Assembly: GCA_043750125.1 (NCBI GenBank)
Contig: JAYVCD010000118.1
Coordinates: 1-30,579, forward strand
Source of the DNA: Archangiaceae bacterium
GTDB taxonomy: Bacteria > Myxococcota > Myxococcia > Myxococcales > Myxococcaceae
Direction: 5' to 3'
Length of the DNA stretch: 30,579 nt
In this document: positions 1 through 21,571 of the stretch, in pieces
Layout: every line of letters begins with the position of its first letter
Position numbering within the stretch: position 1 is the stretch's first letter
The notes under the pieces: generated by a model
What the model saw: only the letters and a program-made list of their open reading frames with translations
What the model was told of the DNA's origin: nothing
The model's database searches: none
Program-made: the position numbers and the translations under genes

Positions 1-255
1 CAGCTTCGGTCCCGCCTCGAGACCGAGCGAATGGTGATTGAAGTCCACAACGACGGCCCGCCAATTCCTGCGCACCTGCTGCCCCACCTGTACGAGCCGA
101 TGAAGCGCGGCGATGAACACGGCGATCACGCCAACCACAGCATCGGGCTGGGCCTGTACATCGTCCGCCACGTCGCCCTCGCCCACCGCGGTACCGTGTC
201 GGTGTCCTCGGACCCGGAGCACGGCACTACCTTCACCGTCTGGCTGCCGGTCTAA
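1..255 (+). CDS. Sensor histidine kinase, C-terminal HATPase_c domain (5'-truncated by window edge)
   Basis: The frame is open from base 1. It contains the G1 box VHNDGPPIP, the F-box-like LYEPMKRG, the G2 box SIGLGLYIVRHVALAHRG and a terminal GTTFTVWLP. Confidence 0.9.
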   Translation, partial: QLRSRLETERMVIEVHNDGPPIPAHLLPHLYEPMKRGDEHGDHANHSIGLGLYIVRHVALAHRGTVSVSSDPEHGTTFTVWLPV

Positions 256-400: not shown

Positions 401-3400
401 TCAGGCAGCGGTCGGCCTGTCCAACTGGGCCAGCACTTCGGCCTCAGAAAGGGCGCTCAGCTCGAGGTAGGTCGCGGCGATCTGCTCGGCTACTTCGCGG
501 CTCGAGTGAAGTCGCGCCAGCTCGGCGACCAACCCTTCCACCGTCGGAGTCGTAAACAGCGCCCGCAGCGGCAGCTCGACCTGGAAGATGTCTCGCAAGG
601 CCGCGACGACGCGGGTCGCCAGCAGCGAATGCCCGCCCAATTCGAAGAAGCTGTCGCGCAGCCCGACCCGTTCGATGCCGAGCAGCTCGGCCCAGATTCC
701 CGCGACCACCCGTTCGGCATCGGTCGAGGGGCTCTGAAAGACCGAGGCCAGCTCGGGCCGAGCCGCGTCGGGCGCAGGCAGGGCGCGGCGGTCGACCTTG
801 CCATTGGACGTGAGCCGCAACGCGGGCAGCACCACGAACGCCGACGGCACCATGTACTCGGGCAGCTTGGTCAGCAGGTGCGCCCGCAGCTCGCTGCTCG
901 AAGGCGGCGCGGCGTTCGCCACCAGATACGCGACCAGCCTCGCAGCAGCCCCGTCATCGGTTCGGGCCAGGACCACCGCCTGATGAACGCCAGGGTGAAG
1001 CAGCAGCGCGCCTTCCACTTCGGACAACTCGACCCGGAAGCCGCGAATCTTCACCTGGTGGTCGATGCGTCCCAGGAATTCCAGGTCGCCGTCGGGCAGG
1101 TAGCGCGCGAGATCTCCCGTCCGGTAGAGCCGCGCGCCGGGAGTAAACGGATGCGCGACGAAGCGCTCGGCGGTCAGCTCGGGGCGATTGAGATAGCCGC
1201 GGGCGAGTCCGACGCCGCCCAGGTACAGCTCACCGACAGCGCCCAGGGGCATCAGTTGCAGCGCGGCGTCGAGCACGAAGCATTCGGTGTTGTCGATGGG
1301 CTTGCCGACCGGCGGGTGCGCCGGCCAGGCCTGCGGCGTCGCGGACAACGTGAAGGACGTGACGACGTGGGTTTCCGACGGGCCATAGTGGTTGTGGAGA
1401 ACGCAGCCCTTCAGCTGCTGAAACAGGCGAATGATCGGCTGAGTGATCACCAACTGCTCGCCGGTCGCCATCACCTCTCGCAGCCCTTGCAGCACTTCGG
1501 GACGGCGCTCGAAGAGCTCGGCCAGCTGCTGAAGAATCACCACCGGAACGACGATCTTCTCGATCGCGTTCGCGCCCAGAAACGCAGCCAGGCCTTCCAC
1601 GTCGCGCCGCAGCGGCTCGGGGACGATCACCAGCGTGCCGCCCGAAGCCCACGCGGCAAACATCTCGTGAATGCTCGCATCGAAGCTCAACGAAGCCAGC
1701 TGGGCCGTGCGCGCGTTGCGTCGCAGCGTTCGCAGGTGCCACTGCAGCAGGTTGGTCATCGCCCGATGCGGCAGGCAGACGCCCTTGGGTCGCCCAGTCG
1801 AGCCTGAGGTGTAGATGACGTAGACGAGGTGCTCGGGCCCAGCGAGCGGAGTGGGGTTCGAGGTGGACTCCCCCTCGAGCTCGGAACCCTGGGTGTCGAG
1901 ACAAAACACGCGCGCGTGATGCGGCGGCAACTCGGGCAGCAGGTGCGCTTGCGTCAACACCACCGGAGCCCCCACGTCCTCGACCATGAACGCGAGCCGT
2001 TCGCTCGGGTAGGTCGGGTCGAGGGGAACAAAGGCACCTCCGGCCTTCAACACGGCAAGGACCCCTGCCGCCATTTCCAGCGAGCGGTCGAGGAACAGCC
2101 CGACACATACGTCCGGGCCCACTCCCCACGCGCGCAGCCGGTGAGCCAGCTGGTTCGATCGCGCGTTGAGCTCGGCATACGTCAGCGACACGCCGTCGAG
2201 CTCGACCGCGATTCCCGTCGGAGTTCGCAGCACCTGTTCTTCGAAGAGCAGATGAAGCGGCTTTTCAAAGCCGTTGTCGATTTGGGTCGCGTTCAACGCC
2301 ACGCGCTGAAGATGAGCTTCTTCCTTCGGCAAGATCTCGAGCTCGGACAGCGGGCGCTGCGGGGCCTGAACGATCTCTTCGAGCAGGACGCGCAGCCGGG
2401 CCACCATCCGCTCGGCTGTGCCGGAATCGAACAGGTCGCTGCTGTACTCGAGCGTTCCAGAGAGTCCGCACGGTCCCTCTTCCAGGCTCAGCAGCAAATC
2501 GAACTTCGCCGCTGTGAAGCCCACTTCGATTTCCTCGAGCCTCAACCCGTCCTGCTCGAGCACGGGGGTGGGCACGTTCTGCAACACGAACATCGTCTGG
2601 AAGATCGGGTGGCGACTGGGGTCGCGCTGCGGCTGAAGCTTCTCGACCAGCAGCTCGAACGGCACGTCCTGCTGCGCGAAGGCTTCCAGCGAGGTCTCTT
2701 TGACTTGCGCGAGCAGGTCGCGAAACGAGAGCCCGGGCTCGAAGTGGCTGCGCAGCGGAAGGGTGTTGGCGAAGAACCCAATCAGCCCTTCCAGCTCGCG
2801 GTGGGTCCGATTTGCGACCGGAGTCCCGACCACCAGGTCCGTCTGGCCGGTATGGCGGTGCAGCAGCACTTTGAAGGCCGCGAGCAGCGTCATGAACAGG
2901 GTCGCGCCTTCTCGCAGCGCCAGCTCTTCCAATGCCTGCCCCAAGGCCGGCGGCAGGGTAAAGGGAATCGCTGCCCCCTTGAACGAGGGCACTGCCGGGC
3001 GGGGTCGGTCGGTCGCCAGTTCCAGCACCGGAAGGGGGCCGCCGAGCTTCTGACGCCAGTAGTCGAGCGGCGCTTTGAGCTGCGCCTCGGACAGCTGTTC
3101 GCGTTGCCACAAGGTGTAGTCGGCGAACTGCAGGGAGAGCTCGGGCAAGGGCGATGCGCCGCCGCGCGAAAACGCGGTGTAGAGCGCCTTCAGCTCGCCA
3201 ACCAGCACGCCCATCGACCAGCCGTCCGAGACGACGTGGTGGACGTTGAGCAGCAACACCTGCTCGTGGTCCGAGAGCTTCAGCAGCGCGCCGCGAATCA
3301 GCGGGCCCTTCTCGAGATCGAAAGGTCGTTCGCTGTCTTCCAATGCGAGGGCACGCACGCGCGCCTGCGCCCCCTCGGAAGGCAGCTCGACCAGACTGGT

Positions 3401-6400
3401 CTGCGGCAGTGGAAACGGCGCCGCGGGGTGGATCACCTGCGCCGCCTCACCCTGGACCGAAGAGAAGGTGGTGCGCAGGACCTCGTGTCGGCGAACGATT
3501 TCCCCCAGCGAGCGCTGAAGCGCGTCGACATCGAGCACGCCCTGCAGGCGCAACGCGGCGGCAATGTTGTAGGCGAAGAGCCCCGGGTCGAGCTGGTCGA
3601 TCAGCCACAGGCGCTGCTGCGAAAACGACAGCGGCAGCTTCTGCGGACGTTCGCGCCGGGTGGGCGCAAGAGTCGCTTTTTCCGTTCCGGACCCCAGCGC
3701 GGCGGTGATGCCCGCGATGGTCGGGCCTTCAAAGAATCCACGCAACGACAGCTGTTGCCCCAGGGTCTGCTGAATGCGCGAGATCAGCTGCGTCGCGAGC
3801 AGCGAATGCCCGCCGAGCTCGAAGAAGTCGTCCTCGATTCCGACCCGCTCGACGTTGAGCAGCCGCGTCCAGAGCTCGCACAGCGTCCGCTCGAGATCCG
3901 AAGAAGGCGCCACGTAGCCTTCGTCGCGATCCGCGCTGACCGCCGCCGGCGCAGGCAGCGCATGGCGGTTGACCTTCCCGTTGGCCAGCAGCGGCAAGGC
4001 GTCCAGGGCGACGAAGGCTGAAGGAATCATCTGCACCGGCAACCGCTCTTTCAGGTACCGGCGCAGCTGACGCGCCGAAGGGGCCGCGCCCGCACGGTTG
4101 ACCACGTAGGCGACCACCGCTTTTTCACCGCTCGCGTCGGCCCGGGCGACGACCAGCACCTCTTCCAATTGGGGATGCCCGGTGAGGGCGCTCTCGATTT
4201 CGCCAATCTCGATTCGAACCCCGCGAATCTTGATCTGGTGGTCGGCCCGGCCGAGCGTCTCGAGGCTGCCATCGGCCAGCAGCCGCACCCGATCTCCCGA
4301 GCGGTACAGCCGCGCGCCGGGCACCGACGAGAACGGATTAGGCACGAAGCTCGGTGCGGTCTTGGCCGCATCGCCCAGGTAGCCGCGGCCGACGCCCAGG
4401 CCGCCGATGCACAGCTCGCCCGCGACGCCCAACGGCACCCGCGCGAGGTGAGCGTCCAGCACGTACACCTGGAAGTTGGGCAACGTCCCGTGAATCGGAA
4501 TGCTGCCGGTCTTCCGGTCCGCCGGAGCCTCGAACAGCTTCAAACAGGTGACATCGTCCGAGCACTCGGTGGGGCCGTAGGCGTTGATCATCGGGGTCTG
4601 CGGCAGCCGCGCGAACCAGCGGGCGCACAGGTCGGCGGTCAGCGGCTCGCCGGTTGAAATCATCCACCGCAGCGACGACGGGCTGGGCAGCCGCTCGAGC
4701 GCGTCGAGCATCAGCCCCAGCTGGGTTGGAACCAGCTCGCAGATCGTCACCTTCTGGGCTTCGAGCCGGCTCAACAACGCCAGCGCATCGCGCCCGCACT
4801 CGTCCGGCAGCACCGCGACCCGCCCACCGTTGAGCAGCGGGGCGACGCACTGCCACACCGAGACGTCGAAGCTCTGGCGCGCCGTCTGCGCCATGCAATC
4901 CGAAGCAGTGAACCCCATCAGCTCGGCCATCGCCAACACGTGGTTGGTCAGGCCGTCGTGGGTGATCATCGCGCCCTTCGGCAGGCCGGTAGAGCCCGAA
5001 GTGAAGAGGACGTAGGCCAGGTCGCGCAGACCACTGACCCAGACCGGGTTCGAGGTCGAAGCCTCGCTGCCGATCAACGTGTTCAGCATCACCGGTTGGG
5101 CAGACAACTCGCGTGCAAGCTCGAGGTGGGCGGCCTGGGCGAGGACCAGCGGGCACTTCGCCTCGTCACAGACCTTGGCCAGCCGAAGGGCCGGCACGGC
5201 AGGGTCGAGCGGAAGAAACGCTCCGCCGGCCTTCCAGATCCCGATCATCGCCGCCAGGTAGCCGACGCCCCGCTCGTGAAGCACTCCGACGATCGTCTCG
5301 GGCCCCACCCCTTCGGAACGCAGCGCGTGCGCGATCTGGTTGGCCTGGGCGTTCAGCTCGCCATAGGTCAGCGCCCCACCGTCTTCGGTGACAGCAATCG
5401 CATCGGGGGTACGGACCACCTGGGCTTCGAACAGGTGGTGAAAGGGCACCAGCTCGGGCCAGGTCTTTTCGGTGGCGTTCCACCCGTCCTGCAGACGGCG
5501 CACCTCGTCGCCCAGCAGCTCGAGCTGCGCGATGGGCTGGGAAGGATTCTGGGCGATCGATTCGAGCAGCCGCAGGTAGTGAGCTCCCAGCCGGGTGATC
5601 GTCCCGGGGTCGAAGAGATCGGTGTTGAACTCGAAGTCCACCTGCAGCCCGCTGCCGCGCTCTTCGACGGCGACGGTGAGCTCGAACTTCGAGGTCCCGG
5701 TGTTCGGCTCTTCCAGCTGCAGCTCGAGGCCCGGCAGCGTGAGCGCCGACCTCGGAACATTGACCAGGTCGAACATCACCTGAAACAGCGGGTTCCGGGC
5801 CAGGTCGCGCTCGGGCTGCAACGCACCCACCACCTGCTCGAACGGCGCGTCCTGATTCGCGTACGCCTCGAGGGTGGACTGTCGAACCTGCTCGAGCAAC
5901 GCGAGGAAAGTCGGGTTGCCCCGGACATCCGTGCGCAACGCCAGGGTGTTGACGAAAAAGCCGATCAACCCTTCGAGCTCGGTGCGCCCGCGATTCGCAA
6001 GCGAGGTGCCGACGACCAGATCCTCTTGCCCCGAGCATCGGGACAGCAGCACGTTGAACGCGGCGAAGAGCGTCATGAACAGCGTCGCTTCGCGCTCGCG
6101 GGACAGGGCGCGAAGGGCCGCGGTCAACGGCTGGGGAATCTGCAGCGTCACGCTGCTTCCATTGAAGGTCTGCACCGGCGGCCGGGGTCGGTCGATGGGC
6201 AAGTCGATCGAGCTGGGCGCTCCGGCGAGCTTCGCCTTCCACCACGCCAGCTGCTCCTCGAGTCGCGCGCCTTCCAACCACCCGCGCTGCCACAGGGTGT
6301 AGTCGGGGTACTGAATCGGCAGCTCAGGAAGCGCAAAGGGCCGGCCTGCCGCCGCGGCCGCGTAGTGCGACGACAGCTCGGAGACCAGCACCGAGACTGA

Positions 6401-6919
6401 CCACCCATCGGACACGACATGGTGCAGCGTCAATGCGAGCAGCTGCTCGTCTTTCGCCACCTGGATCAATTGGGCGCGAATCAGCGGCCCGCGGGCGAGG
6501 TCGAAGCCCCGCTGGCTCTCGGCCAACGCCCGCTGCATCGCCTGCGACGGATCACCTGCAGCGTCCACCCGGGGAAGCTCAATCGCGAACGGAGCCGCAA
6601 TGCGCTGCACCGGCCCGGTCGGCCCGCGCTCGAACACGGTTCGCAGCGCCTCATGGCGACGCACCACTTCATTCAGCGCCTGGTGCAGCGCGTCGACGTT
6701 CAGCTTTCCGCGCAGCCGCACCAGCCCCGACACGTTGTACTGGGCGGTTCCCGGCTCGAGCTGATCGAGCACCCACAGCCGCTGCTGAGAAAAAGACAGC
6801 GGCAGCTCGGGCGGGCGAACCGCGCGGGGAATCGACGGCACCTTCGAATCGCCGAGGCCCTCGTCCTCGAGCAACATCTCGAAGAGCTCATTTCGCTGCG
6901 CGGATTCAGTGAGTTGCAT
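401..6919 (-). CDS. Two-module NRPS, C-A-PCP-C-A-PCP, no TE/R domain; A1 predicted 2,4-diaminobutyrate, A2 proline-family
   Basis: Two C domains (LSFSQQRLW, HHVVSDGWS twice). Two A domains (YVLFTSGSTGLPKG / YVIYTSGSTGRPKG, YGPTE / YGPSE, LYRSGD / LYRTGD, NGKV). Two PCPs (FFELGGHSLLA). Specificity codes read by eye against GrsA: DVWEITADDK and DAHVMTHVVK. The start overlaps the upstream stop by 14 bp. Confidence 0.96.
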   Translation of the reverse strand: MQLTESAQRNELFEMLLEDEGLGDSKVPSIPRAVRPPELPLSFSQQRLWVLDQLEPGTAQYNVSGLVRLRGKLNVDALHQALNEVVRRHEALRTVFERGPTGPVQRIAAPFAIELPRVDAAGDPSQAMQRALAESQRGFDLARGPLIRAQLIQVAKDEQLLALTLHHVVSDGWSVSVLVSELSSHYAAAAAGRPFALPELPIQYPDYTLWQRGWLEGARLEEQLAWWKAKLAGAPSSIDLPIDRPRPPVQTFNGSSVTLQIPQPLTAALRALSREREATLFMTLFAAFNVLLSRCSGQEDLVVGTSLANRGRTELEGLIGFFVNTLALRTDVRGNPTFLALLEQVRQSTLEAYANQDAPFEQVVGALQPERDLARNPLFQVMFDLVNVPRSALTLPGLELQLEEPNTGTSKFELTVAVEERGSGLQVDFEFNTDLFDPGTITRLGAHYLRLLESIAQNPSQPIAQLELLGDEVRRLQDGWNATEKTWPELVPFHHLFEAQVVRTPDAIAVTEDGGALTYGELNAQANQIAHALRSEGVGPETIVGVLHERGVGYLAAMIGIWKAGGAFLPLDPAVPALRLAKVCDEAKCPLVLAQAAHLELARELSAQPVMLNTLIGSEASTSNPVWVSGLRDLAYVLFTSGSTGLPKGAMITHDGLTNHVLAMAELMGFTASDCMAQTARQSFDVSVWQCVAPLLNGGRVAVLPDECGRDALALLSRLEAQKVTICELVPTQLGLMLDALERLPSPSSLRWMISTGEPLTADLCARWFARLPQTPMINAYGPTECSDDVTCLKLFEAPADRKTGSIPIHGTLPNFQVYVLDAHLARVPLGVAGELCIGGLGVGRGYLGDAAKTAPSFVPNPFSSVPGARLYRSGDRVRLLADGSLETLGRADHQIKIRGVRIEIGEIESALTGHPQLEEVLVVARADASGEKAVVAYVVNRAGAAPSARQLRRYLKERLPVQMIPSAFVALDALPLLANGKVNRHALPAPAAVSADRDEGYVAPSSDLERTLCELWTRLLNVERVGIEDDFFELGGHSLLATQLISRIQQTLGQQLSLRGFFEGPTIAGITAALGSGTEKATLAPTRRERPQKLPLSFSQQRLWLIDQLDPGLFAYNIAAALRLQGVLDVDALQRSLGEIVRRHEVLRTTFSSVQGEAAQVIHPAAPFPLPQTSLVELPSEGAQARVRALALEDSERPFDLEKGPLIRGALLKLSDHEQVLLLNVHHVVSDGWSMGVLVGELKALYTAFSRGGASPLPELSLQFADYTLWQREQLSEAQLKAPLDYWRQKLGGPLPVLELATDRPRPAVPSFKGAAIPFTLPPALGQALEELALREGATLFMTLLAAFKVLLHRHTGQTDLVVGTPVANRTHRELEGLIGFFANTLPLRSHFEPGLSFRDLLAQVKETSLEAFAQQDVPFELLVEKLQPQRDPSRHPIFQTMFVLQNVPTPVLEQDGLRLEEIEVGFTAAKFDLLLSLEEGPCGLSGTLEYSSDLFDSGTAERMVARLRVLLEEIVQAPQRPLSELEILPKEEAHLQRVALNATQIDNGFEKPLHLLFEEQVLRTPTGIAVELDGVSLTYAELNARSNQLAHRLRAWGVGPDVCVGLFLDRSLEMAAGVLAVLKAGGAFVPLDPTYPSERLAFMVEDVGAPVVLTQAHLLPELPPHHARVFCLDTQGSELEGESTSNPTPLAGPEHLVYVIYTSGSTGRPKGVCLPHRAMTNLLQWHLRTLRRNARTAQLASLSFDASIHEMFAAWASGGTLVIVPEPLRRDVEGLAAFLGANAIEKIVVPVVILQQLAELFERRPEVLQGLREVMATGEQLVITQPIIRLFQQLKGCVLHNHYGPSETHVVTSFTLSATPQAWPAHPPVGKPIDNTECFVLDAALQLMPLGAVGELYLGGVGLARGYLNRPELTAERFVAHPFTPGARLYRTGDLARYLPDGDLEFLGRIDHQVKIRGFRVELSEVEGALLLHPGVHQAVVLARTDDGAAARLVAYLVANAAPPSSSELRAHLLTKLPEYMVPSAFVVLPALRLTSNGKVDRRALPAPDAARPELASVFQSPSTDAERVVAGIWAELLGIERVGLRDSFFELGGHSLLATRVVAALRDIFQVELPLRALFTTPTVEGLVAELARLHSSREVAEQIAATYLELSALSEAEVLAQLDRPTAA

Positions 6920-8135
6920 GGACGTTTTCCTCGTTCGCAGCGACTTGATCTTTCAGCGCCGCCAGGTGTTCCAGGCTCGCGAGCACTTCGGCCGGGGCCA
7001 CTCCGAAGTCGATCAAGCAGGCCACTTCGTTCACCCCCGCCCCTCGCAGCCGGTCGGCCATCGCAAGGCAGGTCTGGGGGGTACCAATCAGCGACTGGCC
7101 GTTGAGGTAGCGCTGAAACGCGAAGTCCAGCAGCGCGTCTTCGTCGGCGCGGGTCAAGGTGAGGTCCCCGGTTCCCGTCTGGGCCAGAGATTTGGCCAGC
7201 TCTCCGTGCGAGCGAAGGTAGGCGTGAAGCGGGCCGCGCACGGTCTGCTCGACCTCGCGAGAGTCCGTGCCCAGGAAGGTGTGTGCCATCACGGTCACCA
7301 CCCCCAGCTCGGGAGCGTGACCGTGGCGGGCGCGGGCCTCGCGATACGCCGCCACCCGTTCTGCGAGCTGATCCACCGTGAGATCCAGCAGCGCGGTGAG
7401 CACGTGGGTGCCCCGCTCGCCGGCCTTGACGAAGGTGTCGATCGAACGCGCAGCCGTCATCCAGATGGGAAGCTCGGGCTGCACCGGGCGCGGGAAAGTC
7501 TTCACCAGCGTTTTGGCTCCTCCGCCCCCGACAAACGGCAGCGCCTCGCCACGCCACAGGCGCCGCAGGGCGTCGACGCCCTCGTTGACCGAGTCTTTGC
7601 GATCGGCGTAACGCTCGGGCGCAAAGACGAAGTCGTTCGCGTGCCATCCTGAGGCAAACGCCAGGCCGACCCGCCCGTTCGAGAGGTTGTCCACCACTGA
7701 CCATTCTTCGGCGATGCGCACCGGGTGGTGCAGGGGCAAGACGACGCTGCCCGCTCGCAGCTCGACCCGCTGGGTAATCATCGCCAGGGCGGCCGAGAGC
7801 ACCGACGGGTTGGGGTACAGCCCGCCAAAAGGGTGAAAGTGCCGTTCCGGAGTCCAGACCGCTTTGAAGCCCCGCTGGTCGGCAAAGCGCGCTCCGTCGA
7901 GCAGCAGTTGGTACTTCGGCGCGCCTGAGGGTGACTGAGTCTCGTCGCTGGAAAAGTAGAACAGGCTGAAGTCCAGGTGCCGGCTGGCCTGGCCAGTCAC
8001 CGAGGGCAGAGGCGCGGAACGAGGGGGCACAGGCGGCTGTTCTTTGCGTGCCAGACCGGTGCGCTCGAGCTTGAGCGTGAGCAGCGCGCGCTGCTCGGGC
8101 GAGAGGGCGGCGATTCGAAGCGAGAGGTCGCTCAC
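6906..8135 (-). CDS. Luciferase-like (LLM-class) flavin-dependent monooxygenase, natural-product MupA/Atu3671 type, with N-terminal docking-like helix
   Basis: Motifs FSLFYFS, KYQLLLDGARFADQRGFKAVWTPERHFHPFGGLYPNPSV, LRAGSVVLPLHHPVRIAEEWSVVDNLSNGRVGLAFASGWHANDFV and VNEVACLIDFGV. The GTG start overlaps the PKS stop (GTGA). Confidence 0.93.
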   Translation of the reverse strand: MSDLSLRIAALSPEQRALLTLKLERTGLARKEQPPVPPRSAPLPSVTGQASRHLDFSLFYFSSDETQSPSGAPKYQLLLDGARFADQRGFKAVWTPERHFHPFGGLYPNPSVLSAALAMITQRVELRAGSVVLPLHHPVRIAEEWSVVDNLSNGRVGLAFASGWHANDFVFAPERYADRKDSVNEGVDALRRLWRGEALPFVGGGGAKTLVKTFPRPVQPELPIWMTAARSIDTFVKAGERGTHVLTALLDLTVDQLAERVAAYREARARHGHAPELGVVTVMAHTFLGTDSREVEQTVRGPLHAYLRSHGELAKSLAQTGTGDLTLTRADEDALLDFAFQRYLNGQSLIGTPQTCLAMADRLRGAGVNEVACLIDFGVAPAEVLASLEHLAALKDQVAANEENVHATH

Positions 8136-13438: not shown

Positions 13439-13448
13439 GGTGATGTCC

Positions 13449-16400
13449 TCAGCTCGAAGGCGATCGCTTCTTGCGTGCCTTCTCGAGCGCGGCCCGTTGG
13501 CGAGAGGCGCGGTCCTGCACCTCGCGGATGCCCTGGTTCGGGTCCGCGGCCTGGCTCAAGAACGCCGCCAGCTCGTGAATCGTGGGGTGCTGAAACAGCT
13601 CGACCATCGTGACGCTGCGACCGAGCACGTCCTCGAGCTTGCTGTGCACCCGAACCATCAGCAGCGAGTGGCCGCCGAGGTCAAAGAAGTTGTCCTGAAT
13701 CCCGACCTGCTCGAGCCCGAGCGCTTCACGCCACACCTTCGCGATCAGCCGCTCGAGATCATTAGTGGGCGCAATCGACGCCCGGGGAACGACCACCGGC
13801 ACCGGCAGCGCCCGGCGATCAATCTTCCCGTTCACCGACAGCGGCAGGCTGGAAAGGAAAGTGAAGATCGCGGGGATCATCGGTTCAGGCAGGCGCGCCT
13901 TGAGCCACGCACGCAGCCCATTCGCGTCGGGGGTCGGGTCGACGGAAACCACGTAGGCCAGCAACTGGGCGCTGCCCGCCGCGTCCGGCCGCGCGATCAC
14001 CACCGCCTGCCGCACCGTGGGGTGGGTGGCCAGCGTCGCTTCGATTTCCCCGGGCTCGATTCGAAAGCCGCGCACCTTGATCTGCTCGTCGAGTCGCCCG
14101 AGAAATTCGAAGTTTCCATCGGGAAGCTGCCGCACCCGATCTCCGGTGCCGTAAAGCCTGGACCCGGTGTCGAAAGGCGCAGGGACAAAGCGCGCCGCCG
14201 TCAGCTCGGGCAAACCGAGGTAGCCGCGGGCCAGCTGCGGGCCACCCAGCCACAGCTCGCCGGGGACACCGGTCGGCACCGGACGCTTGAGCGGGTCGAG
14301 CACCCAGGCCTCGATCGCACCGACCGGCCGGCCGATGGGCAGGCACGCAGTGTCCACCGACATCGCGTCGGACTCGGGCTCGAAGACGAGCGAAGTGATC
14401 GTCGCCTCGGTTGGCCCGTAGCCGCTGATCAACGCCGGCTGAATTCCGACCGCGCGACGCCAGCGCTCGAAGTGAAGGCTCGAGGTCTTCTCGCTTCCCG
14501 TCACCACCAGCCGCAACGACCTCGGGGGACGATTTCGTTCGGACCCCAGCGCCTCGACCCAGATGTGCCAATACGGCGAAGGAAGGTTCACCACCGTGAG
14601 CCGCTCGCGATCCAGGAACTTCACCAGCTCGGGAATGCCCGGCACGCCCTGCTCGGGCCACAGCACCAGGGTGGCGCCCCTGCACAGCGTGGGGAAAATC
14701 TCTTCAGCCGCCACGTCGAACCCGATGCCCGACAGCTGCAGCACGCGGTCGGTCGGTGACAGCCGAAGGAAGCCCTGCGCCCCGTCCAGATAGCTGGCGA
14801 ACGCACCGTGGGTCACGAGCACGCCTTTGGGGCGACCGGTCGAGCCGGACGTGTAGACGACGTACGCGAGCTGCTCGCCTTTTGGCTCGACCTTCGGGGC
14901 TTCAGCGCCCTGAAGGTTCAGCGCCGGGCTCTCGCGATCGATCAACAGCAGCGCTCGCGGCGTCGAAGGCAACACGGCCGCCAGAGGGGTCGTGGTGATC
15001 AGCAGCTGGGCCCGAGAGTCGTCCAGCATGAAGGCCAGCCGGTCGGCCGGAAGGCTGGGGTCCAGAGGAAGGAAGGCGCCGCCGGCCTTGAGAATCGCCA
15101 GCTCGGCCACCACCAGCTCGGGCGAGCGCGGAAGGCAGACTCCGACGATCGTCTCGAGGCCAATTCCCTGTTCGACCAGCCGGTGGGCGAGCCGATTCGC
15201 GCGCTCGTCGAGGTCGCGATAGGTCAGCCTCTCTTCGCCGCACTGAATGGCAATCGCCTCGGGGCTCAGCGCCGCCTGGGCCGCCACCCGACGCGTCACA
15301 CCGACGCAGCTGCCCGCGACACGGGCCAACCGCGGGGCGCGAGGGTTTGCGTCGGACTCCAGCGCGAAGGCCCCCACCGCGGTCTGCGGAGCGTCGACGA
15401 TGCCGGCGAGCAGCACCTGAAAATGCTCGGCCATTCTCGACAACGTCGAAGGCTCGAACAGATCGCTGTTGTACTCGAAGGCACCGGAAAGCCCGGGGCC
15501 CACTTCGGCCAGGCTCAAGGTCAAATCGAACTGGGCGACGCGGCGCGACAACGCCAGCGACTCGATCGACAGGCCTCCCAGTTCCATCCGCGCGCCCGCC
15601 TCGTCCAGCGAGAAGGCCGTCATTCCCTCGTCGGCAAGTGCGTGTGCCCGCTGCAGGACGAACATCGTCTGGAACAGCGGCGAACGACTGGGGTCGCGAC
15701 GCGGCTGCAGGCGTTCGACCAGCAACGGAAGCGGAAAATCTTGATGCTCCAGCGCGCCCAACACCGAACGCCGCGTGCGCTCGAGCAGCGTCGCAAACGA
15801 AGGCTGATCCTCGAACCGCGCTCGCAGCACGACCGGGCTGACCAGGTACCCGAACAGCCCGGTGAAGCGCGAACGGCTTCGACCCGCCGCAGGCGAACCA
15901 ATCAACAGATCGTCCTGCCCCGAGTACCGGTGCAGCAACACCTGAAATCCTGCCAACAACGTCGCGTAGAGCGTCGCGCCGCTGCTCTGGGCGAGCGCCT
16001 TGAGCTTGACGGTCAGCGCCGGGTCGATCGAGAACGCGTGCGAGGCGCCCCGATACGTCTGCACCGCGGGACGAGGCCGGTCGGTGTGAAGCTCGAGCGT
16101 CGGCAGCACTCCGGCCAGGTTCGAACGCCAGTACTCCCACAGCTGCGCGCCTTCGGGACTCTGCAGCAGTGCGCTTTGCCATTGGGTGTGGTCCGCAGGA
16201 GTCGCGCCAGGAAGAGGCAGCGACAGCGGCTTGCCCGCCCGCGCCTGCAGGTACAACGGGACCAGCTCGCTCACCAGTTGGACCAGCGACCAGAAGTCCG
16301 CGACCAGGTGGTGGACGACCAGCAGCAGCACGTGGTCCTGCGGTCCGCGCCGGAAGAGGCTGACCCGAAACAGGGGGCCCCGCTCGAGCTCGAAGCGCTT

Positions 16401-18800
16401 CTGCGAGTCGGCATCGAGGCGCTCTTCCAGCGCTTCAGGGCTCCAGCCCGTGGCGTCCTCGAGCTCGAAGCAGACCTGCGCCTGGGGGTGCAGCTGGGCG
16501 AAGGGTTCGCCTCCGCGCGAAGAGAACGTGGTGCGCAGCGCAGGGTGCCGATCGATCAACGCCTGAAAGGCCTGCTGCAACGCCGTGGCATCGAGCTGCG
16601 AGTGGATCCGCACCGCACGCGCGAGATGGTAGGCGGTGCTGTTGGGCGCCAGCTGGTGCATGAACCACAGCGCGCGCTGCCCGTGCGACAGCGGGGTCGG
16701 GCCGAGCTCGAGCGCCGTCGGCGGTGGCAGCGCAGGCGCGAGAGTGAGTGCGTTGACGAGAGTGGCCGAGAGCTCTTCGACGCTCGCGCCTTCGAGAATT
16801 CTTGCCAGCGGGCAGTCGAGGCCCAGCTGATCCTCGATCATGTTCTTCAGCTCGACCGCCATCAACGAGTCGAGCCCCATCGAGACGATCGGCTCGGTCG
16901 AGCCCACGGTGCGGACGGGAACTTTCAACGCGCTCGCCAACCACGATCGCAGCAGCCCCCCAATCAGCGCCGGCCGTTCGGACAGCGCAGCGGCCATCAA
17001 CTCTGACCTCGAGAGCGCGGGAACAATCGGCTCTTCGACGCTCGCCACCGAAGCCACCACCGACAGCTCGCCTGACTCGAACGCCGCTCGGCAGGCGTGG
17101 CGCTGAATCTTTCCACTCGAGGTCTTGAAGATGCTGCCCGATTCGATCAACGCGAGCGCGTGCAGCTGAAGGCCGTGCTCGTCCGCGATCGCCTGACGAA
17201 CTGCGCGCGCCACCTCTTCGGAATCCGTGTCGCGATGAGCCCGCTCGAGCTCCTGGACCACCACCAGCTTCTCTTCACCGTCGAGCTCGACGCAGAACGC
17301 GGCGCCGCAGCCAGGTCGCAGCGCCGGGTGGCTGCTCTCCACCGTTCGCTCGAGATCCTGGGGGTAGTGATTTCTGCCGCGAATGATCAGCAGGTCCTTC
17401 AATCGCCCGGTGATGAACAGCTCGCCTTGCTGAAGGAAGCCCAGGTCTCCGGTGCGCAGGAAGGGACCTTCGCCGCCCGGAGCCAGAGTCGCGCGGAAGA
17501 AGCGCTCGGTCGCTTCGGGGTTGTTCCAGTAGCCCTGGGCGACGCTGTCTCCCTGCACCCAGATTTCGCCGACTTCTCCGGCACCACATTCCACCCGGGT
17601 GTCCGGGTTCGCGATCGCCAGCCGCTGCCCCTGCGTAGTCTTGCCACCGCCCACCAGGGTGCGCGCTTCGCCCGAAGGTTCGGCGATCTGATGACGCAGC
17701 AGCGCGGCGGCATCGAAGTGGCCCACCACCGGTGCTTCGGCCACGCGGCCGCCTGTGATCAGCAAGGTGCCTTCGGCAAGGCCGTAGCAGGGGTAGAAGG
17801 CTTCCCGTCGGAACCCCGCGGGCGCGAAGGCTTCGACGAACCGGTCGAGGACCTCGGTTCGAATCGGCTCGGCGCCGTTGAAGGCGACGTTCCACCGGCT
17901 CAAGTCGAGCGCCGCGCGATCTTCAGGCGTCGTCTTCCGCACGCAGAGGTCGAAGGCGAAGTTCGGGCCACCGCTGGTGGTCCCGCCATATTTCGAAACG
18001 GCCTTCAGCCACCGCAGCGGCTTGGTGAGGAAGTCGATCGGCGAGAGCAGCGTGCCGGGAAAGCCCCCGTACAGCGGCTGGAGGATCCCTCCGATCAACC
18101 CCATGTCGTGGTACGGCGGAAGCCAGATCACCGCGTGACTGGCGGGGCTGTGCTCGTAGCAATCGTGAATCAGCCCCGAGTTGTGGAGCAGATTTCCGTG
18201 GCTCAACATCACGCCCTTCGGCGTCGAGGTAGACCCCGAGGTGTACTGAAGAAACGCGAGCGTCTGCCGACCGATCTCGGGCGGGGCCCACGCATTTTCC
18301 AGCCCGGGACTCAAGTCGTCCGTCGCCAGCCAGCGCAGCGCCTGAAGATCTCGAGCGTCGGCGAAGGCGCTTTGCATCAGCTCGAGAATGAAGCCCTGGG
18401 TCAACGCGAACTGCGCCCCCGCATCGCTGGCGATTGCCTGCAATCGGGGCAGCGTTCGCGCCAGCCGCGCCGGATTCGGTGGGTACGCCGGCACCGCAGT
18501 GACGCCCGCATACAGGCACCCGAGGAACGCGGTGATGTACTCGAGACCCGGAGGGTAGATCAGCAGTGCCCGGCCCCCCGTCGCTCCCGATTGCTGGAGC
18601 AACGCGGCGACCGCTCGCGCTTTCGAATCGAGCTGCGCGTAGCTGATGCAGACCGCGTCGTCCTCGCCGTCCTGAAGGAATCGGTAGGCAAGGCCATCGG
18701 GCTGATGCGCCGCTCTGCTGCGGGCCAGCTCGACCAGAGTCTGTGCGTCGGTCGCCAGCGCCGGGCGCCGAGAGCCGATCGACAATCCGTGCGGGGACAC
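13449..18800 (-). CDS. Starter NRPS: FAAL-ACP-C-A-PCP (start codon approximate, GTG at 18800)
   Basis: FAAL motifs LAFLQYTSGSTSTPKG, WLPPYHDMGLIG, GGPNFAFDLC, FYPCYGLAE plus insertion, GRNHYPQDLE and KTSSGKIQR. ACP MGLDSLMAVEL. C domain HHLVADFWS. A domain YTSGSTGRPKG with code DVENVGGITK. PCP FFDLGGHSL. The ORF-track start at 19463 lies inside the aminotransferase gene. Confidence 0.94.
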   Translation of the reverse strand: MSPHGLSIGSRRPALATDAQTLVELARSRAAHQPDGLAYRFLQDGEDDAVCISYAQLDSKARAVAALLQQSGATGGRALLIYPPGLEYITAFLGCLYAGVTAVPAYPPNPARLARTLPRLQAIASDAGAQFALTQGFILELMQSAFADARDLQALRWLATDDLSPGLENAWAPPEIGRQTLAFLQYTSGSTSTPKGVMLSHGNLLHNSGLIHDCYEHSPASHAVIWLPPYHDMGLIGGILQPLYGGFPGTLLSPIDFLTKPLRWLKAVSKYGGTTSGGPNFAFDLCVRKTTPEDRAALDLSRWNVAFNGAEPIRTEVLDRFVEAFAPAGFRREAFYPCYGLAEGTLLITGGRVAEAPVVGHFDAAALLRHQIAEPSGEARTLVGGGKTTQGQRLAIANPDTRVECGAGEVGEIWVQGDSVAQGYWNNPEATERFFRATLAPGGEGPFLRTGDLGFLQQGELFITGRLKDLLIIRGRNHYPQDLERTVESSHPALRPGCGAAFCVELDGEEKLVVVQELERAHRDTDSEEVARAVRQAIADEHGLQLHALALIESGSIFKTSSGKIQRHACRAAFESGELSVVASVASVEEPIVPALSRSELMAAALSERPALIGGLLRSWLASALKVPVRTVGSTEPIVSMGLDSLMAVELKNMIEDQLGLDCPLARILEGASVEELSATLVNALTLAPALPPPTALELGPTPLSHGQRALWFMHQLAPNSTAYHLARAVRIHSQLDATALQQAFQALIDRHPALRTTFSSRGGEPFAQLHPQAQVCFELEDATGWSPEALEERLDADSQKRFELERGPLFRVSLFRRGPQDHVLLLVVHHLVADFWSLVQLVSELVPLYLQARAGKPLSLPLPGATPADHTQWQSALLQSPEGAQLWEYWRSNLAGVLPTLELHTDRPRPAVQTYRGASHAFSIDPALTVKLKALAQSSGATLYATLLAGFQVLLHRYSGQDDLLIGSPAAGRSRSRFTGLFGYLVSPVVLRARFEDQPSFATLLERTRRSVLGALEHQDFPLPLLVERLQPRRDPSRSPLFQTMFVLQRAHALADEGMTAFSLDEAGARMELGGLSIESLALSRRVAQFDLTLSLAEVGPGLSGAFEYNSDLFEPSTLSRMAEHFQVLLAGIVDAPQTAVGAFALESDANPRAPRLARVAGSCVGVTRRVAAQAALSPEAIAIQCGEERLTYRDLDERANRLAHRLVEQGIGLETIVGVCLPRSPELVVAELAILKAGGAFLPLDPSLPADRLAFMLDDSRAQLLITTTPLAAVLPSTPRALLLIDRESPALNLQGAEAPKVEPKGEQLAYVVYTSGSTGRPKGVLVTHGAFASYLDGAQGFLRLSPTDRVLQLSGIGFDVAAEEIFPTLCRGATLVLWPEQGVPGIPELVKFLDRERLTVVNLPSPYWHIWVEALGSERNRPPRSLRLVVTGSEKTSSLHFERWRRAVGIQPALISGYGPTEATITSLVFEPESDAMSVDTACLPIGRPVGAIEAWVLDPLKRPVPTGVPGELWLGGPQLARGYLGLPELTAARFVPAPFDTGSRLYGTGDRVRQLPDGNFEFLGRLDEQIKVRGFRIEPGEIEATLATHPTVRQAVVIARPDAAGSAQLLAYVVSVDPTPDANGLRAWLKARLPEPMIPAIFTFLSSLPLSVNGKIDRRALPVPVVVPRASIAPTNDLERLIAKVWREALGLEQVGIQDNFFDLGGHSLLMVRVHSKLEDVLGRSVTMVELFQHPTIHELAAFLSQAADPNQGIREVQDRASRQRAALEKARKKRSPSS

Positions 18801-18805
18801 GGCCG

Positions 18806-20140
18806 TCAGTGCCCGTTCGCGTGCTGCAAAGGCTTGGCAACAGCCGGCCGAATCATCGCGGCGATGGAAATGTCCTGCGGCTGCGAGCCCAGAACTTCCG
18901 CCAGTGCGCTCGACAAAATCTCGAGCCCCGCCACCAGCTGCGCGCGGGGAATGGTGAGCGCGGGCAGCACCTTGAGCACGTTGTCTTCGCGGCCACAGCG
19001 CTCGAGGATCAAGCCCGCCTCGAAGCAGCGCCGTTGTATCTCGGTCGCAGCAGCAGGCCCCCCGCATTGCGCGAGGTCCAGGCCGGCGACCATTCCGATG
19101 CTCCGCACCTGCAGCTGGGGGTACGCGCGGCCAATGGACGTGGCGTAAGCCTGAATCAGCTGGCTCTTCTCGCGCAGGCCCTGCAGGAAGACCTCGTCTT
19201 TCCAGTACTCGAGCGCAGCGGTCGCCGCGACCAGGGACAGCTGGTTGGCGCGGAAGGTCCCGGTGTGTTCTCCGGGCGACCAGCGATCGAGCTCGCGCTT
19301 CATCAGCACCACCGCCATCGGAAGGCCGTACCCGCCAATCGACTTCGAGAGCGTCACGATGTCCGGCTGAATTCCCGCCCGATCGAATGAGAAGAAGTCT
19401 CCGGTGCGGCCGCAGCCCACCTGAATGTCGTCGCAGATCATCAAGATCTCGAAGCGGTCGCACAGCGCGCGAAGCCCCTGGAGGAACTCAGGAGTCGACG
19501 GGTAGACCCCACCGTCCATCTGCACCGATTCCAGAATCACGGCCGCCGGACGTTCGACGCCCGAGCAGCTGTCCTCGAGCAGGCGCTTCATCAGCCCCAG
19601 CGAGTCGAAGGCTCCGTGCGGCCCATCGGGAAACGGAATGAAGGTCGTGTTCGACAGCGGCACGCCCACCGCGGCCCGCACGCCCAGGCTGGCCGTGACC
19701 GAGCTGCTGCCCATCGTCATGCCGTGGAAGGAACCGGTGAACGCGAAGATTCCGGTTCGGCCGGTGATCTTTCGCGCCAGCTTCAGCGCGGCCTCGACCG
19801 CGTTGGCGCCCGTCGGCCCCGGAAACTGAATTTTGTAATCGAGCCCGCGCGGCGCGAGCACGGTGTCGACGAAGGTCTGCAGGAACAACGCCTTCTGCGT
19901 CGTGTAGACGTCGAGCCCGTGAACGATTCCGTCCGCGCCCAGGTACTCGAGCAGCTTTTCTTTGATCGGCTCGGGGTTGTGGCCGTAGTTCAGTGCGCCT
20001 GCGCCCGCGAAGAAGTCGAGGTACCCGCGACCTTCGGTGTCGAAGATCTGAGAGCCCTTGGCGCGCTGGAAAATCTTCGGAAACACCCGGCAGTACAAAC
20101 GGACTTCGGACTCGTGCTGCTCGAAGACGCGCGTCGACAT
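18806..20140 (-). CDS. ectB: Diaminobutyrate--2-oxoglutarate aminotransferase (class III PLP enzyme, EctB/PvdH family)
   Basis: N-terminus MSTRVFEQHESEVRLYCR, then YLDFFAGAGALNYGHN, QFPGPTGANAVEAALKLARK, FHGMTMG, DDIQVGCGRTG, the PLP lysine motif LSKSIGG and PGEHTGTFR. Confidence 0.92.
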   Translation of the reverse strand: MSTRVFEQHESEVRLYCRVFPKIFQRAKGSQIFDTEGRGYLDFFAGAGALNYGHNPEPIKEKLLEYLGADGIVHGLDVYTTQKALFLQTFVDTVLAPRGLDYKIQFPGPTGANAVEAALKLARKITGRTGIFAFTGSFHGMTMGSSSVTASLGVRAAVGVPLSNTTFIPFPDGPHGAFDSLGLMKRLLEDSCSGVERPAAVILESVQMDGGVYPSTPEFLQGLRALCDRFEILMICDDIQVGCGRTGDFFSFDRAGIQPDIVTLSKSIGGYGLPMAVVLMKRELDRWSPGEHTGTFRANQLSLVAATAALEYWKDEVFLQGLREKSQLIQAYATSIGRAYPQLQVRSIGMVAGLDLAQCGGPAAATEIQRRCFEAGLILERCGREDNVLKVLPALTIPRAQLVAGLEILSSALAEVLGSQPQDISIAAMIRPAVAKPLQHANGH

Positions 20141-20142
20141 GG

Positions 20143-20391
20143 TCAGACCTGCCCTGACGCGTTGAAGTCGCCCGGGGTGAGGTTGTGCTTCTTGAAGAGC
20201 TTGCGGACGTAGACGCGATCGATGCCCGCCACCCGCGAGGCCTTCGACACGTTCCCGCCACATCGACGCGCCAGCTGCTCGAGGTACTCGCGCTCGAAGG
20301 CGTTGACCAGCTGCTCTTTGGCCTCTTTGAACGGAACCGGCGAGGCCAGGTCACCCGATGAGTCCTCGTACTTGTAGCTTCCCTCGTCCAT
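20143..20391 (-). CDS. Stand-alone Fis-type helix-turn-helix protein (82 aa), resembling the C-terminal DNA-binding domain of sigma54 enhancer-binding proteins
   Basis: PFKEAKEQLVNAFEREYLEQLARRCGGNVSKASRVAGIDRVYVRKLFKKHNL. GGAGAA RBS just upstream of ATG 20391. The stop lies 2 bp before the aminotransferase start. Confidence 0.85.
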   Translation of the reverse strand: MDEGSYKYEDSSGDLASPVPFKEAKEQLVNAFEREYLEQLARRCGGNVSKASRVAGIDRVYVRKLFKKHNLTPGDFNASGQV

Positions 20392-20527: not shown

Positions 20528-21571
20528 CTAATCATTGCGAATGATCACCTTCAGCGCGCGCTCTCGCATCGCATGTCCGAAGGTGTCGTAGGCCTTCGCC
20601 ATTTCGCTCAGTGCGAAGCGGTGGGTAATCAACTGGGCCGGCTTGACCTTCCCCGAGGCGACCGTCTTCATCAGCAGCGGAGTGCTGACCGTATCGACGA
20701 GGCGGGTGGTCAGCGTGATGTTGTGGGACCAGAGCTTCTCGAGGTGCAGCTGCGCCGGCTTGCCGTGGACCCCGATGTTGGCGATGTGACCTCCGGCGGT
20801 GACGATTTCCTGGCACACGTCGAAGGTCGCCGGGATTCCGAGCGCTTCGATCGCCACGTCCACGCCCCGGCCTGCGGTGAGCTTCATGATCTTCTCGGCA
20901 GCCTTCCCATCGGTGTTGTTGACCACGTCTGTCGCTCCGAGCTTCTTTGCGACCTCGAGCCGGTTGTCGTCGGTGTCCACCATCACGATCCGGGCGGGCG
21001 AGTAGAACTGCGCGGTCAGCAAAGCGGCCAGGCCGATCGGGCCAGAGCCGACGATCGCGACCGTGTCTCCGGGCTTCACCTGCCCGTTGAGAACCCCACA
21101 CTCGAACCCGGTGGGCAGAATGTCGCTCAACATCACCAACCCCTCTTCGTCCGCGCCGTCGGGAACCGCGTAGAGGCTGTTGTCTGCGAAGGGAATCCGC
21201 ACGAACTCGGCCTGGGTCCCGTCGATCAGGTTGCCCAGGATCCAGCCCCCGCCATTTTCGCAGTGCGAATACATGCCCCTGCGGCAGTTCGGGCAACGCC
21301 CGCAAGACGAGATGCACGAGACGATGACGTGGTCTCCGACCTTGAAGCTGGCGACGTTGGCCCCGATCTGATCGACGACGCCCACGCCTTCGTGCCCGAG
21401 GATCCGGCCGGCAGTCACCGCCGGAACATCACCCTTGAGGATGTGCAGATCAGTTCCGCAGATGGTCGTCTTGGTGATGCGGACGACGGCGTCGGTCGGC
21501 GCTTGAATCGTGGGTTTCGGCTTTTCTTCGAGCCCGCACTTTCCGGGTCCCTGGTACACGAGTGCTTTCAT
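20528..21571 (-). CDS. Zinc-dependent alcohol dehydrogenase (MDR family)
   Basis: TICGTDLHI, GHEGVG, structural Zn site CGRCPNCRRGMYSHC, SDILPTG and Rossmann GSGPIG. AAGGAG RBS at 21580-21585. Confidence 0.95.
   Translation of the reverse strand: MKALVYQGPGKCGLEEKPKPTIQAPTDAVVRITKTTICGTDLHILKGDVPAVTAGRILGHEGVGVVDQIGANVASFKVGDHVIVSCISSCGRCPNCRRGMYSHCENGGGWILGNLIDGTQAEFVRIPFADNSLYAVPDGADEEGLVMLSDILPTGFECGVLNGQVKPGDTVAIVGSGPIGLAALLTAQFYSPARIVMVDTDDNRLEVAKKLGATDVVNNTDGKAAEKIMKLTAGRGVDVAIEALGIPATFDVCQEIVTAGGHIANIGVHGKPAQLHLEKLWSHNITLTTRLVDTVSTPLLMKTVASGKVKPAQLITHRFALSEMAKAYDTFGHAMRERALKVIIRND

Follow-up and report, generated by a model that had tools for sequence, protein, structure and literature searches.

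A split lipoinitiated NRPS-PKS assembly line in an Archangiaceae bacterium, predicted to place an arginine-derived alpha-oxidised gamma-amino acid next to diaminobutyrate

Six minus-strand genes packed into positions 401-20391 of a contig from an Archangiaceae bacterium appear to encode the 5′ two-thirds of a hybrid nonribosomal peptide synthetase-polyketide synthase (NRPS-PKS) assembly line, the product of which is predicted from the sequence to carry an Arg-derived alpha-oxidised gamma-amino acid next to L-2,4-diaminobutyrate (Dab). The window, by which we mean the whole stretch of 30,579 nt that was analysed, is the whole of contig C118 (JAYVCD010000118.1) of a metagenome-assembled genome (MAG; here G000, GCA_043750125.1; 6.17 Mb, 460 contigs, 89.4% complete). 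The oxidised unit would be made by a malonyl-specific PKS module, in which the dehydratase (DH) domain lies behind the ketoreductase (KR) domain, acting together with a luciferase-like monooxygenase (LLM). The original prediction had instead described a compact cluster for an acyl-primed cationic lipopeptide, with a Michael acceptor of the syrbactin type if the DH acts. The genes and domains on which the argument rests are as follows.

20143-20391, minus strand: operon gene 1, Fis-type helix-turn-helix (HTH) protein of 82 aa (Pfam HTH_8, E 6.4e-06).
18806-20140, minus strand: diaminobutyrate-2-oxoglutarate transaminase, EctB/Dat-like (NF006733, Aminotran_3).
13449-18800, minus strand: fatty-acid-AMP ligase (FAAL)-ACP-C-A(Arg)-PCP protein of 1783 aa, predicted loading module and module 1 (Pfam, NCBIfam, A code).
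8132-13438, minus strand: PKS with the predicted order KS-AT(malonyl)-psiKR-KR-DH-ACP, KR ahead of DH (Pfam, motifs).
9599-10117, minus strand: KR domain, PKS residues 1108-1280 (PF08659, E 2.7e-50).
8729-9544, minus strand: DH domain, PKS residues 1299-1570, C-terminal to KR (PF21089 and PF14765).
6906-8135, minus strand: stand-alone FMN-dependent LLM of the MupA/Atu3671 family (TIGR04020, Bac_luciferase).
401-6919, minus strand: NRPS C-A(Dab)-PCP-C-A-PCP, predicted modules 3 and 4 (Pfam, A codes).
1-255, plus strand: 3′ part of a histidine-kinase gene that is truncated at the start of the contig (HATPase_c profile positions 35-108).

The order of the six genes, their domain strings and the spacings between them are exactly as originally predicted: junctions read base by base gave 2, 5, 10, -4 and -14 nt, and the domains were recovered with Pfam. 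The sixth gene, which the original prediction counted and left without a name, is the HTH gene. Its ATG at 20391 is preceded by a GGAGAAG motif, and its stop lies 2 nt before the start of the aminotransferase gene. Membership of the HTH gene in the pathway is uncertain, because it is missing from both related clusters described below (L092 and G278). The FAAL-NRPS gene starts with a GTG at 18800, 5 nt past the aminotransferase stop; a longer FAAL open reading frame (ORF) reaching to 19463 overlaps the aminotransferase gene in another frame, has a noise-like translation and was rejected as a spurious extension. Neither sigma-70 promoters nor intrinsic terminators were found in scans of the two operon ends.

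Lipoinitiation is supported by the profile matches of the first assembly-line protein. The best AMP-binding subfamily models for its N-terminal domain are all fatty-acid-AMP ligases (NF004509, NF009124, FadD21 and FadD32; E 1e-153 to 1e-134, all below the full-protein cutoffs of NCBIfam), and an ACP and a C domain follow in Pfam, in agreement with the earlier assignment of this domain as a putative FAAL that loads a fatty acid. The aminotransferase is predicted to supply Dab. It scores 588.5 bits against NF006733 (cutoff 438) and 436.3 bits against TIGR00709 (cutoff 401.6) and falls just under the cutoff of the ectB equivalog TIGR02407 (548.5 vs 552.2 bits), and a 58%-identical aminotransferase gene lies within the G278 cluster.

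Ten-residue specificity codes of the A domains were taken by anchoring on motifs A4, A5 and A10, and the register was checked by aligning 12 A domains with MAFFT. The reference-enzyme positions were taken as given and not computed, and the A2 result validates the register. Reference codes were those of Tables S12 (Arg) and S21 (Dab) of PMC12283262. The A1 code, DVENVGGITK, shares 8 of 10 residues with the LybB Arg code DVENVGAINK, and all six D-V-E codes in Table S12 are for Arg or homoarginine (PMC12283262). Selection of Arg by A1 is thus supported, and with it the basic first residue that had been proposed. For A2 the code is DVWEITADDK, which matches DIWELTADDK, the commonest Dab code in Table S21 (20 occurrences; PMC12283262), at 8 of 10 positions, differing by V for I and I for L. 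Selection of Dab by A2 is likewise supported, with Dab as the third building block. The third domain fared differently, having been called Pro-like: its code, DAHVMTHVVK, agrees with Pro codes (DVQ[FY]IAHVVK) only at positions 322-517 (HVVK), and A236 and H239 stand where Pro codes carry V236 and Q239. All eight HVVK-ending codes in the supplement are Pro codes, and there is no D-A-H code in its reference table (PMC12283262). The Pro-like call is thus not supported. A further A domain, on contig C155 of the same MAG, has the code DVRHLALLAK (DVRHFALLAK in its G278 counterpart). Since this code is close to the Zmn16 code listed as 'AMA' (9/10) and to the FclI Asp code (7/10), the residue is predicted to be acidic. 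The codes of the first three domains are kept in the window, L092 and G278: DVENVGG, DVENVGA and DVENIGA for A1, DVWEITADDK in all three for A2, and DAH[V/I]MTHVVK for A3.

In the PKS, the KS motifs are intact (NDKD at 148, Cys172 in (Q)TACS, His310 in HGTGT310, and His350), and the AT carries GHSLG at 616 and HAFH at 714. By established AT rules HAFH denotes malonyl, so that the malonyl assignment holds, and the PKS motifs quoted in the original prediction are all present. The KR has the NADPH motif GGLGGIG1114 and the catalytic Tyr in YAAAN1254, and is without an LDD motif; the DH has HxxxGxxxxP at 1330, YGQ at 1449 and Asp at 1491, with a His-to-Asp spacing of 161 residues. An ACP lies at residues 1660-1722 (Pfam). 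In canonical cis-AT modules the DH is ahead of the KR, whereas the window PKS reverses this order and has the DH behind the KR. No orthologue of the PKS was found in 40 relatives, the best full-length match being 47% identical.

The LLM (P0002, 409 aa) matches all 341 positions of the TIGR04020 model, scoring 496.6 bits where the NCBIfam cutoff is 244.45. A 4-nt overlap joins its GTG start to the PKS stop, and ahead of the conserved part there is only a 55-aa N-terminal extension with no Condensation match in Pfam. Among GTDB species representatives no LLM orthologue was found, the best identity in the best 80 loci being 58%. P0007 and P0008, the proteins that come closest to the KR-DH-ACP region (48% and 47% identity, 2204 aa), are KS-AT-KR-DH-ACP-LLM fusions, while PF00296 occurs in 4 of the 119 other listed proteins, many others of which end in a C, E or TE domain. 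The LLM is also fused after the ACP in L092 and in L044, a Pyrinomonadaceae MAG in which C-A(MT)-PCP is followed by KS-AT-KR-DH-ACP-LLM and then C-A. Of 80 LLM-anchored loci, 58 have a KS, 30 a KR and 18 a detectable DH; the KR-then-DH order in 17 of these 18 is a biased count, the DH probe having come from a KR-then-DH module, with canonical DHs under-detected. Several LLM-anchored loci show KS-AT-ACP or KS-AT-KR-ACP without a DH. A search anchored on the PKS found five KR-then-DH modules in 40 relatives, with an LLM within 5 kb in three and the other two cut by contig ends. These comparisons indicate that the KR-then-DH module recurs with a TIGR04020 LLM across phyla, by record titles in Acidobacteriota, Chloroflexota, Planctomycetota, Burkholderiales, Cyanobacteria and Myxococcota, with the LLM fused, split or embedded in an A domain.

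Other arrangements of the LLM were seen along the way. A frequent two-gene form consists of formyltransferase-A(TIGR04020-type LLM inserted)-PCP followed by KS-AT-KR-DH-ACP, as at L080:7559-18825 and L057:7538-17890, and also in L026, L027, L035, L041, L043, L045, L066, L074 and L075; a C-terminal TE has a Pfam match in L080 and none in L057. By record titles in the tblastn pattern, this form occurs in Rhodopirellula, Polyangiaceae, Caldimonas, Ramlibacter, Planctomycetaceae, Acidimicrobiales, Anaerolineae and others, and we know of no characterised product for it. Cultured myxobacteria show another LLM context. In L008, L014, L017 and L024 (Cystobacter fuscus, Pyxidicoccus caerfyrddinensis, Myxococcus eversor and Myxococcus sp. 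CA023) a protein of about 3,900 aa contains KS-AT-ACP, the LLM lies about 2 kb later and neither a KR nor a DH was detected. Three of these loci (L008, L014 and L017) have a FAAL-like match upstream, and the layout recalls beta-amino-alpha-hydroxy fatty-acid lines. Compared with the fused protein P0008, the window PKS (8132-8270) has an acidic helical tail at its C-terminus and the LLM has 55 additional aa at its N-terminus, and these two segments may form a docking pair.

In the literature we found no characterised cluster with the architecture of the window, as had been predicted; comparison with MIBiG by KnownClusterBlast was outside our scope. The only near case is the myxoglucamide (mxg) pathway of Cystobacterineae sp. 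MCy9003, which the available text of a recent report (PMC13638107, Angew. Chem. 2026) describes as a FAAL-primed line in which malonate extends a PCP-bound modified Glu on MxgC, with KR and DH active. In that text, the MxgC DH has H1396, D1558 (spacing 162) and LGP at 1516, and MxgC DH mutants lost production (PMC13638107). When FMN-binding residues of OxMxgE were mutated, the result was a shunt product that has a beta,gamma double bond and no alpha-keto/alpha-hydroxy group (PMC13638107, section 2.10). The domain order of MxgC was inferred here from the published residue numbers and from the homologue P0122 (2271 aa; Pyxidicoccus trucidator per NCBI), which has KS-AT-KR-DH-ACP and a C-terminal C/E-type (Condensation-family) domain. 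Because the DH residues of P0122 (H1398, LGP at 1519 and D1561) all lie within 3 residues of the MxgC numbering, the MxgC type probably has the KR-then-DH layout as well. The genome of P0122 (G307) belongs to the same family as the source MAG, which places the MAG, from an uncultured myxobacterium, in the Myxococcaceae. Next to the P0122 gene lies one for a C-LLM fusion protein, the LLM of which matches TIGR04020 at 452.7 bits; since both match TIGR04020, the monooxygenase of this mxg-like locus belongs to the same family as the stand-alone LLM of the window.

The window and mxg, as the report's available text presents it, share a FAAL-ACP start, a malonyl PKS module with KR and DH acting on an aminoacyl-PCP, an FMN monooxygenase and a next NRPS module forming a (keto)amide, and the His-to-Asp spacing of the DH is 161 in the window vs 162 in MxgC (PMC13638107). 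Found in mxg only are a Glu module with an alpha-ketoglutarate dioxygenase, a vinyl group, an E domain ending MxgC, TE release, a P450, a glycosyltransferase (GT) and the O-acyltransferase MxgH; the same text gives mxg no Dab gene and just one further amino acid (PMC13638107). The window, in contrast, has an Arg-type A1 code and a Dab gene, Pfam found no E, TE, P450 or GT domain in it, and release would be by an R domain on contigs C155 and C375. Its KR-DH-ACP region is 38% identical to that of the MxgC-like P0122. The cluster is, on this comparison, not an mxg orthologue and shares with mxg only a common cassette.

The mxg-like locus of G307 (L124 and L125, G307:C53:36000-70000) consists of C-LLM, FAAL-ACP-C, C-A-PCP and KS-AT-KR-DH(LGP)-ACP with the C/E-type domain. 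Its C-LLM gene is upstream, whereas the mxg description puts the monooxygenase gene at the operon end, and tblastn with the probes used found no C-A-PCP-TE gene directly behind the PKS in G307. Another locus, G289, looked MxgE-like at first sight because its LLM lies in an apparent ORF of 800 aa, and was rejected: it is an A-embedded LLM in a different cluster.

Two syntenic relatives help to delimit the pathway. L092, a metagenome contig of 20,608 bp, encodes FAAL-ACP-C-A-PCP, KS-AT-KR-DH-ACP-LLM as one protein, and C-A-PCP-C-A-PCP to the contig end, at 47-75% identity per domain to the window; it differs from the window in the fusion of the LLM to the PKS, and its contig ends in the last PCP. 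G278, a genome of about 10.1 Mb from the same family as the source MAG, has one contiguous cluster on its contig C31, in the order FAAL-ACP-C-A-PCP, KS-AT-KR-DH-ACP, LLM, C-A-PCP, C-A-PCP-C-A-PCP, Dab aminotransferase, PhyH, C-A-PCP, KS-AT-ACP-R, major facilitator superfamily (MFS) transporter and penicillin amidase. Unlike the window, it has one more C-A-PCP module behind the LLM, and its aminotransferase gene is found in mid-cluster and not at the head. Both L092 and G278 are without the HTH gene and without the FIST/kinase insertion of the source MAG. The cluster was not found in four same-genus genomes searched, which are themselves fragmented MAGs.

Compared with G278, the window stops short of a release step: its Pfam matches include no TE, R or terminal C, and PF00975 matches elsewhere in the source genome sit on contigs C274, C125 and C102. 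Counterparts of the missing genes are present on C155 of the source MAG (14,536 bp), which carries on one strand PhyH, C-A-PCP and a KS-AT-ACP-R gene cut by the contig end. Their best matches are the terminal genes of G278 (PhyH 61%; KS-AT-ACP-R 53% over 1282 aa), and the C-A-PCP is 46% identical to the terminal module of G278 and at most 36% to its other modules. At the other end of C155 lie a FIST gene and a PAS-HisKA kinase gene with an open 3′ end, which breaks off where HATPase_c begins, and the window start picks up at profile position 35 of that domain. In two kinase paralogues, both from other genomes, about 21 aa lie between the parts that correspond to the C155 and window fragments, and the two kinase halves are the only complementary pair among the 920 contig ends of the MAG. 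It is the complementary gene halves, together with synteny, that support the join of window and C155. Between C155 and C375 there is an exact 9-nt overlap that leaves the reductase frame unbroken, and C375 then encodes an MFS transporter (52% identical to that of G278) and a full-length Penicil_amidase protein (754 bits; 47% to G278). With very high probability, then, the G000 pathway runs from the window through C155 to C375, and the word 'compact', where it implied completeness, does not hold.

The stretch between module 4 and PhyH/module 5 spans about 7 kb and contains FIST, the kinase and two ORFs without a Pfam match. On C155 the latter are at 7964-9181 (minus strand), or alternatively 7904-8980 (plus strand), and at 9521-11809 (plus strand, 762 aa). 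Past the acylase gene, C375 (4626-10871) carries a lone C-A-PCP gene (7446-10871) and, on the opposite strand, an FAD_binding_4 oxidase gene; the two may be additional pathway genes or may mark where a different cluster begins. The window NRPS (401-6919) ends in an acidic tail of about 40 aa after its last PCP, which could be a docking element.

Taken as a whole, the following pathway, a split assembly line with alpha-oxygenation of an Arg-malonate unit by the LLM, seems to us somewhat more probable than not. FAAL-ACP would load a fatty acid, module 1 would condense the fatty acyl group with Arg, and the hybrid KS would extend acyl-Arg by malonate. KR and DH would then give a 2-enoyl intermediate or its 3-enoyl (enamide) tautomer, and the LLM would oxygenate C-2 (C-alpha) of the ACP-bound enoyl or beta,gamma-shifted form. 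This step is placed in cis and ahead of the next condensation because homologues are PKS-LLM fusions. A 2-hydroxy-3-enoyl product would, on chemical reasoning, tautomerise to the 2-oxo acid, and the resulting unit would be 2-hydroxy or 2-oxo 4-acylamino-7-guanidinoheptanoyl. Condensation with Dab by module 3 would turn this unit into an alpha-hydroxy or alpha-keto amide, and module 4, with the A3 code given above, would add a further residue. On C155, module 5 would add the acidic residue, PhyH may hydroxylate that or another residue, and the final KS-AT-ACP-R would add one more malonate without reduction, the R domain releasing an aldehyde that could cyclise. Finally, export by the MFS transporter and removal of the fatty acyl chain by the PvdQ-like acylase may follow; both steps are suggested, by analogy, from the MFS and penicillin-amidase genes that are found beside the R module in G278 as well as in G000. 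Acyl removal on maturation is the weakest step and is doubtful, though a serious candidate. The term 'lipopeptide' in the original prediction is consequently borne out for the FAAL start, while a mature product that keeps its acyl chain is uncertain, given the acylase gene conserved at the cluster end.

Parts of this scheme have counterparts elsewhere. Pyoverdine biosynthesis (PvdL/PvdH/PvdQ) reportedly combines a FAAL start, a Dab aminotransferase and a later deacylation, with Dab entering the chromophore. Vioprolide and corramycin are described, in the available text of PMC10099666, as acyl-primed 'pre-drugs' with proposed export and acyl removal and with hydrolase/acylase and exporter genes at the cluster edge; their mature products no longer carry the fatty acid. 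A FAAL start and acylase and exporter genes at the cluster edge are shared with these pre-drug pathways as presented there, while module content is wholly different. Corramycin itself was considered as the product and rejected, its line being FAAL-ACP-C-HAD-T with 12 modules and a TE end (PMC10099666). The ketoamides of PMC11626197 belong to RiPP spliceotides and have no bearing here.

Several points weigh against the proposed pathway. LLMs can also epoxidise, or hydroxylate elsewhere. The Stachelhaus positions come from motif anchoring and MAFFT and not from a dedicated predictor, and the KR-then-DH count among LLM loci carries the detection bias given above. The end of C155 and the start of the window were found to have no exact overlap in sequence, and the four intervening genes could mean that the pathway is disrupted or separately regulated. 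In the comparison with mxg, the DH has YGQ at the position of LGP in MxgC and P0122 and YGP in P0008, and the window LLM is without the fused C domain that is described as essential in MxgE (PMC13638107). Moreover, the timing and substrate of OxMxgE are left unsettled in that report itself (PMC13638107).

Three other readings were weighed against alpha-oxygenation of an enoyl intermediate. For a cluster complete in itself, with the DH product remaining a syrbactin-like vinylogous Michael acceptor, the LLM tailoring the molecule otherwise and the acyl-basic amino acid-(C2)-Dab-Pro-like lipopeptide leaving by an unspecified release, one would point to the catalytic His and Asp of the DH and the Tyr of its YGQ, to a KR that looks active, and to the non-biosynthetic genes that flank the six genes on both sides in the window. 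In syrbactin/glidobactin lines, which are not known to contain an LLM, the last module is a PKS module with a TE for closure of a 12-membered lactam. The resemblance to them is that an amino acid plus one malonate, with KR and DH, could yield a vinylogous amino acid; in the window, however, the PKS module is internal and without a TE, the LLM and four more modules follow, release is predicted to be reductive, and the syrbactin hallmarks of a terminal PKS-TE for macrolactam closure and a free-standing starter A-PCP are absent. The window is also without TE, R or terminal C, and orthologues of the G278 terminal genes lie on C155 and C375 with complementary contig ends. The KR-then-DH type of module travels with an LLM, which removes the syrbactin-type acceptor from its place as the favoured outcome; the nearest homologues fuse the LLM to the module, and the sole characterised case gives alpha-oxidation (PMC13638107). 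We regard this reading as rather unlikely. The DH could alternatively be silent or act as an isomerase only, with the LLM hydroxylating C-alpha, so that a gamma-amino acid of the alpha,beta-dihydroxy or alpha-hydroxy-beta-keto type would arise in place of a 2-oxo or 2-hydroxy-3-methylene unit. This would accord with the LLM-anchored loci that have no DH and, in the available texts, with palmerolide, in which the module 9 LLM is tied to the alpha-hydroxyl beside KR-only or non-reducing modules, a proposal resting on bioinformatic assignment (PMC8739492), and with the LLM domain annotated in microginin micD, also a bioinformatic assignment (PMC9594780). As described in those texts, neither LLM module has the KR-then-DH arrangement (PMC8739492; PMC9594780). 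The DH of the window retains its catalytic residues, MxgC DH mutants lost production (PMC13638107), and the strict KR-DH-ACP-LLM fusion pattern argues that the DH belongs to the functional unit, so that a silent DH also seems unlikely.

The last of these readings takes the cluster for a decaying remnant, split by the insertion of FIST, kinase and unknown genes and yielding no mature product. It draws on the 7-kb stretch with four unrelated genes, two of them on the opposite strand, and on the failure to find the cluster in the four fragmented same-genus genomes. It has to accommodate six window genes and C155 and C375 genes that are open with intact catalytic motifs, A codes shared with L092 and G278, and an NRPS tail of about 40 aa that could dock; we consider it very unlikely. 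Alpha-oxygenation on a split assembly line remains the preferred reading.

The genes on both sides of the cluster are, by their family matches, unrelated to the pathway. On the right flank they comprise a Zn-dependent alcohol dehydrogenase, a family-less protein, a tandem USP protein, an ArsR regulator, a DUF1801 protein, an ECF sigma factor, OsmC, a rhodanese and a 5′-nucleotidase. The alcohol dehydrogenase gene (20528-21571, minus strand; threonine/inosose dehydrogenase-like) is on the same strand as the operon, 136 nt upstream of it, and has no counterpart beside the clusters of L092 and G278. Its product probably stands outside the pathway and may at most have a role in keto/hydroxy interconversion. 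The ECF sigma factor ORF (26748-27551, plus strand, 267 aa) has Sigma70_r2 and r4 and in addition zf-HC2 at residues 195-229, and is an apparent sigma/anti-sigma fusion or a mis-joined ORF.

Orphan hybrid clusters are common in myxobacteria. If the proposed pathway is right, this one would be the second example, and the first based on Arg, of the assembly-line logic for alpha-oxidised gamma-amino acids described in 2026. Alpha-ketoamides are privileged warheads of protease inhibitors. The Arg-derived alpha-ketoamide next to Dab may be an Arg-mimicking electrophilic warhead of this type, made as an N-acyl pre-drug and matured through reductive release, export and PvdQ-like deacylation, a suggestion that is tentative and somewhat improbable as it stands. 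For expression work, cloning the 20-kb operon alone would give an assembly line without its release step, and the genes of C155 and C375 would be required. The pairing of a KR-then-DH module with an LLM, characterised once and only in 2026, would offer a simple genome-mining signature for such units.

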